Source of the DNA: a virus
Taxonomy: Duplodnaviria; Heunggongvirae; Uroviricota; Caudoviricetes
Length of the DNA: 3,471 nt
Direction: 5' to 3' (one strand)
IMG/VR virus record: IMGVR_UViG_2663763280_000007
Coordinates: 1 to 3,471 of that record
A model generated the notes under the pieces. The model saw only the letters and a program-made list of their open reading frames with translations. It made no database searches and was not told the origin of the DNA. The translations under genes and the position numbers were made by a program. Positions 1 to 3,471 of this stretch are shown piece after piece (the stretch's first letter is position 1; the number at the start of each line of letters is the position of its first letter).

Positions 1-324
1 GTGTTCGCACCGACCTGGCTTGGGTTATCGTTTTACGATAGCCGCACCACGTCGTTGTTGCATCCTGCTCGCCAGATCCAGCTTCCCAGCCTGCAACGCG
101 GTGAAGGTGAAGCGATGCTTACCGCCCTCACCCATCTTAGCCGTTCGCCGCTGGAGCAGAATATCTCCATTAGTCTGATTCAACTTAAATTGCAGGCCGG
201 GCGGAAGCTGATGCAGGCAGAGACCACCCGACTTAACACTGTGCTGGATTACATTGACGCGGTGACGGCAACAGATACCAGCACAGCGCCGGATGTCATC
301 TGGCCTGAACTGCCGGAGGCGTAG
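1..324 (+). CDS. Tail fiber assembly protein, alternative cassette copy; C-terminal 107 codons only, 5' end truncated by the window edge
   Basis: Open frame runs from the window start to a TAG stop at 322-324. Its C-terminus (LDYIDAVTATDTSTAPDVIWPELPEA) is paralogous to that of the minus-strand Tfa (LDYLDALELVDTSSVLDIEWPTPPAVQAR), sharing the pattern GR-L ... LDY-DA ... DTS ... D--WP--P. Convergent orientation against the other tfa gene fits the second cassette of an invertible fiber segment. The antisense ORF 25..333 has no comparable motif. Confidence 0.7.
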   Translation: MFAPTWLGLSFYDSRTTSLLHPARQIQLPSLQRGEGEAMLTALTHLSRSPLEQNISISLIQLKLQAGRKLMQAETTRLNTVLDYIDAVTATDTSTAPDVIWPELPEA

Positions 325-748
325 GCCATTCAATATCTAGCACACTGGAGGTATCAACCAGCTCCAGTGCGTCCAGGTAATCCAGCCACAAATTATATTG
401 CGCCAGTTCCTCGTCTTTCAGACGACCAATAGCGGCTTTACCGGGCCATTGTTTACTGTTCATGTATTCGTTGGCCTGGTTAATTAGTAGCTGTCTTTCT
501 GATTCAGTAATTTCAATAAGTTCTTCATGCGTGGGTGGAGGAATATCTGCCCACGCAGGCAGCCCATCTTCTCCGGCAATACGGATTTTTCCTTGTGGCG
601 GTTCAGCCATAAACTCACTGATAATATTTTGATTTACTTCCTTAGCGTCTGATAAATCCCATCCCTCTGATTTATATTTATCAATCATATCCACAGGGAA
701 AAAAGCATTATGCCTTGCGCTATAAACATATTCATTCATATAAATCAC
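296..748 (-). CDS. Tail fiber assembly protein (Tfa chaperone), 150 aa as drawn
   Basis: Lies immediately downstream of the tail fiber gene on the same strand, with the fiber stop at 760-762. The C-terminal WP-x-x-P motif and size are typical of Tfa/Mu U-type chaperones. The codon at 746-748 is GTG, not ATG; an in-frame ATG at 737-739 is preceded by AGGGTG (SD-like, about 5 nt spacing) and may be the true start, giving 147 aa. Stop is TGA at 296-298. Confidence 0.8.
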   Translation of the reverse strand: MIYMNEYVYSARHNAFFPVDMIDKYKSEGWDLSDAKEVNQNIISEFMAEPPQGKIRIAGEDGLPAWADIPPPTHEELIEITESERQLLINQANEYMNSKQWPGKAAIGRLKDEELAQYNLWLDYLDALELVDTSSVLDIEWPTPPAVQAR

Positions 749-759
749 CCTGAATAAAA

Positions 760-1422
760 TTACTCACCAACAGCCCACCAACTGTAATTCATCGATACCG
801 TGTCGCTGGTTGATGACGTTCTGTAAGCAGAATTAAAGCCGGTTAACGTTGGGCCTTCTGCAGTCATCACGAACCCTCGCCCAGCGCCTAAAGGCGCACC
901 GCCATCACCAGAATGAGTAAGCATGGCGCAGTCCGCTTTTTTGGGGAAAGGGATGCTGAATGTAATTCTCATTGTTTGCGTCGATAATGTCGGCGTAACC
1001 GCACCACGACCATATTGCAGGATTTTCCCGTTGGGTAATTTCATCCATCCATCACCACTGGCAAAAGAGGCCATGTCCGGTATCTGATTTTCCCCTGTCC
1101 CCACATCCCGTTTTGCCGCTTCTCCCAAACCAAGGTTTTCGAGAGCCGTTTTCACCGTGCCATCCGATTTGATATCACCAAACGGATTCTTGCGGCTTAA
1201 CAGCAGAGCACGAAGCGCGGTAAGCAACTGGTCATGCCGCCCCTTCTCCAGGCTGGCACCGGAGGTCTCCACAACGCTGCAAAGCTCCTCCTGCAACATG
1301 TCAAAGTAGTCATCATCCAGATCGGTGGCAGGCGTACCAGTCTGGGGGTTACCACGGGTAAAACCGTTCTTACCCGCGCCGAACTTATCCTTCTGCGCGG
1401 TTTTCGTATCTATACGATGCAT
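760..1422 (-). CDS. Short side tail fiber protein, 220 aa: about 92-aa N-terminal constant anchor fused at an LENLGLGE junction to an about 120-aa receptor-binding tip
   Basis: ATG at 1420-1422 is preceded by GGAG about 6 nt upstream, lying inside the end of the upstream gene. Residues 93-101 (ALENLGLGE) are encoded by the crossover-like palindrome at 1120-1145. The downstream motif ([19 protein letters not shown] ... [13 protein letters not shown]) resembles the distal tip regions I recall from phage side tail fibers. Position between a gp48-like gene and a tfa gene matches the canonical order. Confidence 0.85.
1120..1145. other. Putative crossover site for a Din-family serine invertase (hix/gix/cix/pix-like), 26 bp
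   Basis: Sequence TTCTCCCAAACC-AA-GGTTTTCGAGAG: two 12-bp half-sites in inverted orientation around a central AA dinucleotide (left TTCTCCCAAACC, reverse complement of right CTCTCGAAAACC; 9 of 12 match). This closely resembles the hixL/gix sites as I recall them (TTCTTGAAAACCAAGGTTTTTGATAA-like). It sits in frame within the tail fiber gene at the conserved LENLGLGE junction. Confidence 0.75.
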
Positions 1423-1425
1423 GGA

Positions 1426-2010
1426 TTACTCCGGATATTTAAAAATTACGTAGGTATGCGACGGGCAGAGTTTGTTAAGCACACACTCGACAACGGTGTC
1501 GCCCCAGATACTCAGTGCGGAATCACAGGGATCGCCACATGTCATCCAGGTGGTGTTGGTGGCGGCTGGCATGTTGACCTGCCAGTAATACCGCCATTCC
1601 GGCGCATTCACCGCGTCAGTACAGGCCGATGAGCAGGTGAACGTGCTTTTGTCGTATCGCGTGATGGTGGCGTCTGGTCTGCCCAGGGCAGCAAGCTGTG
1701 CAAGGTAAAAATCCTCATTGATGCCGCCCGCCAGGTTAACCTTCGCATCCAGTCGTTGCTGACGCTGGCGAAGGGTCTGTGTCCCTGCGGGAATACATTC
1801 ATCCGGCAGGCCGCACAGACGCTCCCAGCGATTTATCAGTTCGGTGGTGGTGCGCGGATCCAGCTCCCGCATCAGGGCATCCGCACGCTGATGAACACGG
1901 GTTAATGACGGTGCCGCACCGGCAATCGCCGGATCGCTGGCTGACCACGCCGGACCGGGCGGCAACAGTGCCGATAACAGGCGGATGTAATCATCGTTTG
2001 TCACGTCCAT
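1426..2010 (-). CDS. ymfQ: Mu gp48-like / YmfQ-family (DUF2313) phage tail protein, 194 aa; probable baseplate component analogous to P2 gpI
   Basis: ATG at 2008-2010 overlaps the upstream J-like gene by 10 bp (J stop TGA at 2001-2003). The N-terminus [24 protein letters not shown] and the 194-aa length match what I recall of enterobacterial YmfQ-type proteins. Position between the J-like and tail fiber genes is as in Mu (gp47-gp48-S). Stop TAA at 1426-1428, 3 nt before the fiber ATG. Confidence 0.85.
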
Positions 2011-3059
2011 GAAATCGTCCCCAGTACCGCCAGTTCGTTTTTCGCAATGGAGATATTGTCCACCGGTGCAAGCAACTGATGGCTGTATTCCCCGTTCGCA
2101 CCGGAAATCGCTTCACTGATACGTGACACCTTCAGTTCTCCCTGCGGATAACCATCACGCAGCAGGAACGAACGCAACTCGGCGGTGATGGCAGCCCGTA
2201 TTTCCGGTGTGTCCGGCGTCACGCGGATATGAAAATCCACTTTATGCGCCACCGGCCTGAATACATACAAATCAGAGCCTGCCACCGGGGCCAGTGGCTC
2301 AATGTGTTGTCTTGCCGCCGTTTCCGTTGATTCTTCCGGAATGGGATTAATCAGGTCACTGCTGGCAATCATCACACCGACAGTCCCCGTTCCCATCCAG
2401 TGGCGGTATGTCCATGCACGGGTAATGCCGGGCACTTCTTTAGCCCAGACAACATAGTCCCCGTCAGCCCCGCCCTGAGGCGTCCAGTAATACCGCTCAA
2501 TGACGCGGGCGCGCCACGTTTCCAGCTCTTCAGTATCAAATCCACCTGTCAGAGTGTCTGCCACGCCGGAAGACGGCAGACCATTCACCGGCGTGACCAG
2601 GATTAATGCCGTACCGTCGTCAGCGTTACCGACCGCTCCTGCACTTGAGCAGGCGATCGGCACGCGCAGGACACCACCGGAGCTGGTTGCATCGGCAGTT
2701 GCCGTGTACTGAACCAGATCATCGCGCTGAATAACACTCCCGGCGGTCACCTTCAGGCCATCGCTGACACCTTCCCAGCGCATATACCCGCTGGCAGCCG
2801 TGGCCCCCTTGCGCGGACACCGTTTCATCGCAGCATGTCGCGCCAGCCAGGACTCATCGCACAGGTCAGGCAGCATGTTCATTGCCAGATAATCGATGTA
2901 ACCGTAAACCGTATGCAGCGCCGCCGCATACACCTTTGCCCGCACGTCTTCATCCATGCGCCGGAGCGTGTCGCTGACGTCCAGCCTGGCGAATAAATCG
3001 TTACGGAGCATACTGATATTTTCTGCCAGCGTCGGGCGCTGAAATTCACTGTCCGCCAT
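2001..3059 (-). CDS. Baseplate J-like protein (Mu gp47 / P2 gpJ family), 352 aa
   Basis: Long, GC-rich ORF with ATG at 3057-3059, overlapping the stop of the upstream gp46-like gene by 14 bp. Size and position (after the gp46-like gene, before the gp48-like gene) fit the baseplate wedge J family. Plus-strand ORFs 2400..2606 and 2500..2712 lie wholly inside it and are taken as antisense shadows. Confidence 0.85.
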
Positions 3060-3471
3060 GCGTTATCGCACTCCACAGATCATCAAAAGAAATCATTACC
3101 GGTCCGTCACGACGCCAGAGAGTGATACTGTTACCCAGTTCATTAATCCCGGTGCGGCGGATATCCAGATCAATACGGGACACCACACCGTCATCAATCA
3201 TCCATTGCAGGCATTCGCGGATATACCCCCTTACCGTCTGCACCAGCTGATTGGTCAGTTTGCCGCGCTGAAGCAGCCACAGCCGGGAGCCGTAACGGTC
3301 ATTCTGTACCGCAGGCCAGGTATCCCCCCACCATCCCATCGGGACGTCGGCATTGTCATCAGGCTCCGCCCGCCGCCAGGTGAACAGGGAAATCACCACG
3401 GCGCGGGTCAGCGGATCCAGCGGTGCGCTGGCGCAGGTGCGTTTACCGTTCACCGTCAGCCACAGTTCCAT
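3046..3471 (-). CDS. Mu gp46-like small baseplate protein (Phage_GP46 family; functional analogue of P2 gpW), 141 aa
   Basis: Contains GWWGD ... GSRLW-L motifs that I associate with the GP46 family, and 141 aa is typical for it. ATG at 3469-3471 is the last codon of the window, so the upstream context and RBS cannot be seen and a longer N-terminus cannot be excluded. Stop TGA at 3046-3048. Confidence 0.75.
   Translation of the reverse strand: MELWLTVNGKRTCASAPLDPLTRAVVISLFTWRRAEPDDNADVPMGWWGDTWPAVQNDRYGSRLWLLQRGKLTNQLVQTVRGYIRECLQWMIDDGVVSRIDLDIRRTGINELGNSITLWRRDGPVMISFDDLWSAITHGGQ

Follow-up and report, generated by a model that had tools for sequence, protein, structure and literature searches.

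The window analysed here is a stretch of 3,471 nucleotides, positions 1 to 3,471 of the Caudoviricetes record IMGVR_UViG_2663763280_000007. Five phage genes lie on its minus strand. Read from the far end of the window, these are open reading frames for a gp46-like baseplate wedge protein 1 (3046..3471, 141 aa; PF07409 GP46, E 1.2e-32), a baseplate J or gp47-like wedge protein 2 (2001..3059, 352 aa; PF04865, E 5.7e-53) and a gp48-like or YmfQ wedge protein 3 (1426..2010, 194 aa; PF10076 Phage_Mu_Gp48, E 7.6e-27), followed by a tail fibre gene with a Gp53-like C-terminus (760..1422, 220 aa; PF21882, E 3.1e-12) and a gene for a tail fibre assembly chaperone (296..739, 147 aa when counted from the ATG at 739; PF02413, E 2.6e-30). 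The Pfam E-values of the window genes, from 1e-12 to 6e-53, are well clear of the curated gathering cut-offs, and the gp46-like, J-like and gp48-like identities that a preliminary description of this DNA had given to the three baseplate genes were borne out by PF07409, PF04865 and PF10076 at levels far beyond chance. For the chaperone, the program-made list of open reading frames places the start at a GTG at 748 (150 aa), which falls within the GGTGA ribosome-binding site; in all other records the protein is 147 aa long and starts at the ATG at 739, behind the GGTGA.

The remaining features lie at the opposite end of the window and within the fibre gene. An open reading frame on the plus strand (1..324, 107 aa) combines, in one frame, a ypdC fragment with the 3' end of a tfa' gene. 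Its first part (1..165, plus strand) is an internal fragment of ypdC, a chromosomal, non-phage gene of the AraC family, and occurs at 100% identity in many complete genomes, while its second part (166..324, plus strand) is the 3' end, namely, the last 52 codons, of a tfaE-like, convergent alternative fibre-assembly gene, with PF02413 matching residues 56-106 of the frame. A Pin/Gin-type DNA-inversion crossover site is located inside the fibre gene (1119..1144), where it forms a 20-nt inverted repeat with a partner found in relatives.

The three baseplate genes are uninterrupted, their minus-strand frames 3471..3046, 3059..2001 and 2010..1426 all being open, and the tight junctions of the preliminary description could be read from the sequence exactly as it had claimed. 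The gp46-like and J-like genes have 14 nt in common (ATGGCGGACAGTGA), the J-like and gp48-like genes have 10 nt in common (ATGGACGTGA), and only a 3-nt spacer, TCC, separates the TAA of the gp48-like gene (1428..1426) from the fibre ATG (1422). The fibre ribosome-binding site, GGAG, which had been placed inside the gp48-like coding sequence, was indeed found there at 1433..1430, within the end codons CCG GAG TAA, with the fibre ATG 6 nt further on. The window closes with the start codon of the gp46-like gene, its final base being the A of the ATG, so that the upstream signals of this gene lie outside the window. In relatives, the gp45 stop and the gp46 ATG overlap by 1 nt, as do the hub and gp45 genes, and the next junction upstream is an overlap of 4 nt. 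No promoter- or terminator-like sites above chance were detected on the coding strand of 1426-3471, and a search for hidden RNA genes returned no Rfam or tRNA matches.

The best match in the PDB of all three baseplate proteins was one and the same entry, the phage Mu baseplate 9ki1, and each match was nearly full length. The gp46-like protein matched chain 9ki1_A (Mu gp46) with E 2e-14, residues 7-351 of the J-like protein matched 9ki1_H (Mu gp47) with E 1.5e-38, and the gp48-like protein matched 9ki1_a (Mu gp48) with E 1.3e-9. The three proteins thus combine the three Pfam families and the homology to the Mu wedge by which membership of a Mu-type simple baseplate wedge is recognized. Gene order is shared as well, since Mu has the arrangement gp45-46-47-48-S-U-U'-S'-gin, in which fibre and chaperone genes, an inverted pair of the same and an invertase gene follow the baseplate genes, and the overlap between Mu gp47 and gp48 is 10 nt, equal to that between the J-like and gp48-like genes. 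Mu is nevertheless distant in sequence (E 1e-9 to 1e-38), and the SfV-like relatives of the window differ from it in being otherwise lambdoid and non-transposable, with an HK97-type head. The junctions are a fixed trait of the family and no peculiarity of the window locus.

Megablast searches of phage records returned SfV, SfI, SfII and SfIV at 97% nucleotide identity over window positions 1068-3471. The lengths of SfV orf18, orf19 and orf20 (426, 1059 and 585 nt) are identical to those of the window genes, their order is the same and their junctions are identical, comprising the 14-nt and 10-nt overlaps and the 3-nt spacer. Nucleotide identity between orf18-20 and the window is 97.3%, reaching 98.1% for orf18 and the gp46-like gene, and SfV and the window differ by only one amino acid change in the gp46-like protein, three in the J-like protein and one in the gp48-like protein. 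The segment is hence collinear with the SfV late operon, with equal gene lengths, equal junctions and high identity. The dN/dS values against SfV were 0.044 (gp46-like), 0.052 (J-like) and 0.022 (gp48-like), pointing to strong purifying selection on the three genes across the family. In SfV, the fibre/chaperone pair is non-invertible and gtr O-antigen genes come after it, whereas the fibre C-terminus and chaperone of the window belong to a Pin-invertible cassette, an arrangement shared with E. coli prophages and the e14 element.

SfV, SfI, SfII and SfIV are plaque-forming, inducible myoviruses with contractile tails (PMC3636060). Among them, SfI, an inducible phage with a contractile tail that integrates at thrW beside proA, has been described as close kin of SfV and e14 (PMC3636060). 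SfV-like phages of E. coli and Shigella unite an HK97-type head with a Mu-type contractile tail. We conclude with high confidence that window positions 1426-3471 are part of the late operon of such an SfV-like temperate myophage and code for all three wedge proteins of its simple, Mu-type baseplate. The set is an ordinary, very common and already known module, which is routinely annotated as GP46 family, baseplate J/gp47 and YmfQ.

The preliminary description had stated that the corresponding genes of the e14 element of E. coli K-12 are partly pseudogenised, and the K-12 annotation, on which our comparison with e14 is based, agrees with this. e14 (jayE, ymfQ, stfP, tfaP, tfaE, stfE, pinE) has the same module layout as the window but matches it over 1110-2788 only. 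Its ymfQ is intact and 97% identical to the gp48-like gene, while jayE is annotated as a pseudogene that lacks the first 271 nt of J and is fused after a portal fragment, and gp46 is missing, as are the sheath, tube and head genes. In the window, by contrast, all three frames are whole, so that the truncated J and absent gp46 of an e14-type remnant are not seen. Remnants occur elsewhere too. In the locus L018, a deletion has fused a terminase fragment to the 3' end of J, next to gp48 and fibre genes that are 100% identical to those of the window, and the draft assembly L015 carries a truncated gp48. Since identical alleles are found both in full prophages and in remnants such as L018, open frames alone do not show a working tail, and caution is needed in that open, coupled frames in a 2-kb piece of DNA do not show a functional prophage.

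The crossover site in the fibre gene reads, on the minus strand of 1119-1144, CTCGAAAACCTTGGTTTGGGAGAAG. It is identical to the site in stfP of K-12 e14, and its core, AAACCNNGGTTT, is common to the Mu gix site. The window contains this one site; its inverted partner is known from the prophages L012, L004 and L001, where it lies beside a resolvase or pinE gene about 1.85 kb away (1863 nt in L012 and L004). This recombinase gene is present in relatives beyond base 166, at which the phage part of the window ends. Window positions 166-1138 run in opposite orientation in L004 and L005 compared to L012, although these prophages are otherwise 100% identical. Inverted sites sharing the core, one of them in a fibre gene, and the occurrence of both orientations are the marks of a Pin/Gin/Cin-type segment. 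The constant N-terminal part of the fibre extends from 1422 to about 1139; the invertible segment supplies the exchangeable C-terminal part, which is Gp53-like.

Matches to SfV and SfII end at about 1068-1072, P2-like phages (pro483 and P2 of O157:H43) match 166-1144 at 94-96% identity, and GC content is about 39-42% in window positions 450-900, which cover the fibre C-terminus and the chaperone, versus 55-63% in the baseplate genes. The fibre tip and its chaperone are a mosaic cassette traded among unrelated myophages, and the cassette is a host-range switch of the known P-segment/G-segment type. One further locus, L016 (1-6000), has J and gp48 flanking the invertible segment on either side as mirror images, a layout that likely arose when reads of both segment orientations were assembled together.

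The baseplate set was present at a coverage of at least 80% and an identity of 95-99% in 1076 of the 5426 complete E. coli genomes, and the exact J-like protein was found in 230 blocks of the assembly index. The baseplate genes are a re-identified textbook phage module that about every fifth complete E. coli genome carries, and the significance of the finding is low. Flanking sequences were examined in three complete genomes, namely, MEI1-1023, O157:H7 ECP19-598 and UPEC_U013, the integrase end being viewed in MEI1-1023. There, the set lies inside a prophage of about 37 kb that extends from thrW-proA to pinE. The early and lysis genes of this prophage comprise an integrase, a repressor/cro pair, replication genes, Q, holin, endolysin and spanin, and its head and tail genes comprise terminase, portal, protease, capsid, sheath, tube, tape measure, DNA-circularisation protein, hub and spike. 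Flanks of 20 kb in O157:H7 ECP19-598 and UPEC_U013 displayed a MEI1-1023-like layout from the lysis genes to pinE, and all three genomes had lysis, terminase, portal, capsid, sheath, tube, tape measure, hub and spike genes together with the baseplate set and the pin cassette. A full tail module upstream, with capsid genes beyond, was also found in L012, which is 100% identical to the window over 166-3471, and in L004 and L005, which are 100% identical over 1119-3471; a tail module lies upstream of the set throughout L004-L014. In relatives with resolved flanks, the set is thus part of a prophage layout and not of a tailocin layout.

Prophages with an identical J-like protein occupy different chromosomal sites. 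In L006, L007, L008 and L010 they lie beside dusA, with the integrase and DinI genes adjoining Dus and pspG (at about 14300-16800), and others are found at thrW-proA or adjoining pao genes, which gives at least three chromosomal contexts for the identical-J tail module. In L008, gp46 carries a 1-nt indel (9042-10000) within an otherwise 98.7%-identical prophage, and gene calls are missing for the hub, the DNA-circularisation protein and the tape measure; the indel and the missing calls may reflect either decay or assembly indel errors.

The whole window is contained in one record only, L017, the end of the E. coli contig CCCB01000122.1 from assembly GCA_000945835.1, in which it occupies 7952-11422 at 100% identity over 3471 nt. 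Phage homology in L017 ends 65 nt upstream of gp46, in a remnant of gp45, and at the other end at window base 166, where all phage and prophage matches to the window begin. Next to the gp46 end, L017 6400-7951 is made of butt-joined pieces of less than 1 kb, including 189 nt of yjjA, 535 nt of eutP/eutQ, a ferredoxin-like piece and the 3' end of ruvB, with scattered runs of N. Because these flanks are sub-kb pieces of unlinked core genes interspersed with N runs, they indicate an assembly cause rather than a biological one, and we read the joins as scaffold artefacts and L017 as chimeric.

The same explanation probably holds for the ypdC/tfa' joint at 165/166, which is spanned in none of the 5426 complete E. 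coli genomes; the 107-aa frame at 1..324 is, on this reading of the joins, an in-frame chimera. The draft assembly L015 joins ypdC and tfa' too, and this recurrence of the gene pair had made a real deletion boundary conceivable. We nevertheless take the junction to be probably an artefact, given that the breakpoints are 27 nt apart, that L015 has NN there and that complete genomes do not contain it. Inferences drawn from the ends or flanks of the window would mislead, owing to the chimeric scaffold and to the ypdC sequence at 1-165, and the L017 flanks, with their butt-joined ruvB, eutQ/eutP and yjjA fragments, were dropped as evidence on whether the prophage of the source strain is whole.

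The preliminary description had suggested that the locus may belong to a functional prophage or to a tailocin, and had named flanks without sheath or tube genes as an argument against this. Taken at face value, L017, in which no sheath, tube or tape-measure gene lies beside the set, goes against the suggestion, but a chimeric scaffold cannot count in this way. The prophage half of the suggestion found support in the layout seen in relatives, which at the same time speaks against the tailocin half; the open frames on which it had been built are by themselves no proof of function. The relatives favour a prophage tail over a tailocin because near-identical elements carry head, packaging and lysis genes and because SfV, SfI, SfII and SfIV form plaques, and we infer that the source strain's copy is likewise part of a complete prophage. 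An alternative that we consider possible, if unlikely, is that the source genome holds a cryptic, e14-like remnant that recently lost its sheath, tube and head genes, its frames still being open, and that makes no tail. If the joins in L017 were real, the 65 nt of gp45 and the end at base 166 would indeed leave a small piece from which no tail could be built, with no further tail gene upstream of gp46; remnants with identical alleles do occur, as in L018 with its terminase/J deletion, L015 has a truncated gp48, and K-12 e14 is an example of a remnant that has persisted. However, the flanks on which this alternative depends (ruvB', eutQ/eutP, yjjA and ypdC', with N runs) look like the product of scaffold assembly, and the ypdC/tfa' breakpoint differs between L017 and L015 and is in no complete genome.

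A complete prophage in the source genome remains our preferred reading, and two other views of the locus were weighed against it. According to one, intact frames and overlaps would be uninformative on function, the genes having been acquired too recently for decay to set in. The presence of the same alleles at 100% identity in full prophages and in remnants is in line with this view, which we nonetheless regard as improbable, since dN/dS values of 0.02-0.05 against SfV reveal strong purifying selection across the family and since conservation of the junction layout reaches out to Mu. Selection and conserved junctions together indicate that the genes have the sequence of functional ones, irrespective of the condition of the remaining element. 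According to the other, the source strain would carry an R-type tailocin, that is, a domesticated SfV/Mu-type tail cluster with Pin-switchable fibres that has lost its head, packaging and replication genes and kills competitors. Tailocins made from Mu/SfV-type tails are known from Pseudomonas syringae, whose R-type syringacin goes back to a phage with a Mu-like tail and has kept homologous baseplate genes (PMC4542187), and the window by itself holds tail genes only. Yet the syringacin is devoid of head, packaging and replication genes (PMC4542187), whereas the relatives of the window keep head and packaging genes: capsid, portal, terminase and lysis genes accompany the set in every relative whose flanks are resolved, MEI1-1023 has the integrase as well, and no head-less cluster carrying the set was found among the loci examined. 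The Pin-invertible fibre cassette and the thrW or dusA integrase context are likewise prophage traits. The head genes in all relatives with flanks rule out a tailocin as the best explanation, and we hold it to be extremely improbable that the source strain carries one; if it did, this would be the first R-type tailocin of the SfV/Mu-type lineage described in E. coli.

How the encoded baseplate may work can be proposed by analogy with Mu, for which a cryo-EM structure of the wedge is available (PMC11915804). Each of the six wedges of the Mu baseplate comprises one gp46, two gp47 conformers and one gp48. The first sheath ring starts to form on gp46, gp47 joins neighbouring wedges and touches the hub, and the trimeric fibre docks with its N-terminus on a loop of gp48 (PMC11915804). 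Binding of the fibre to its receptor makes the wedges splay, by which sheath contraction is released (PMC11915804). By analogy, the window proteins would assemble into six wedges, each with one gp46-like, two J-like and one gp48-like protein, in which the gp46-like protein would seed the first sheath ring and a loop of the gp48-like protein would serve as the dock for the trimeric fibre; this stoichiometry and these contacts are those predicted from the homology with the Mu wedge.

The baseplate genes would be transcribed together on one late message. In the late operons of phages, translationally coupled genes usually adjoin in such a way that the stop of one overlaps the start of the next, and the overlaps of 14 and 10 nt, followed by the 3-nt spacer with the GGAG, would presumably couple translation of the three genes and of the fibre. 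Inversion of the Pin-dependent cassette downstream, which includes the fibre C-terminus and the chaperone, may then switch receptor specificity.

In several loci, a LEM-3-like GIY-YIG gene adjoins pinE. Candidate defence cargo was also observed at the ends of prophages or beside them, in L001 (14501-18134 and 42146-43306), L021 (11816-13516) and L022 (13032-15785). Among the candidates are an FRG-domain gene with an AAA ATPase and an HNH gene, a PHP gene with a TrlF-like ATPase, a pair of TIR-domain and caspase-family genes located between the lysis genes and Q, and an ABC-three-component system in a neighbouring P4-like element.
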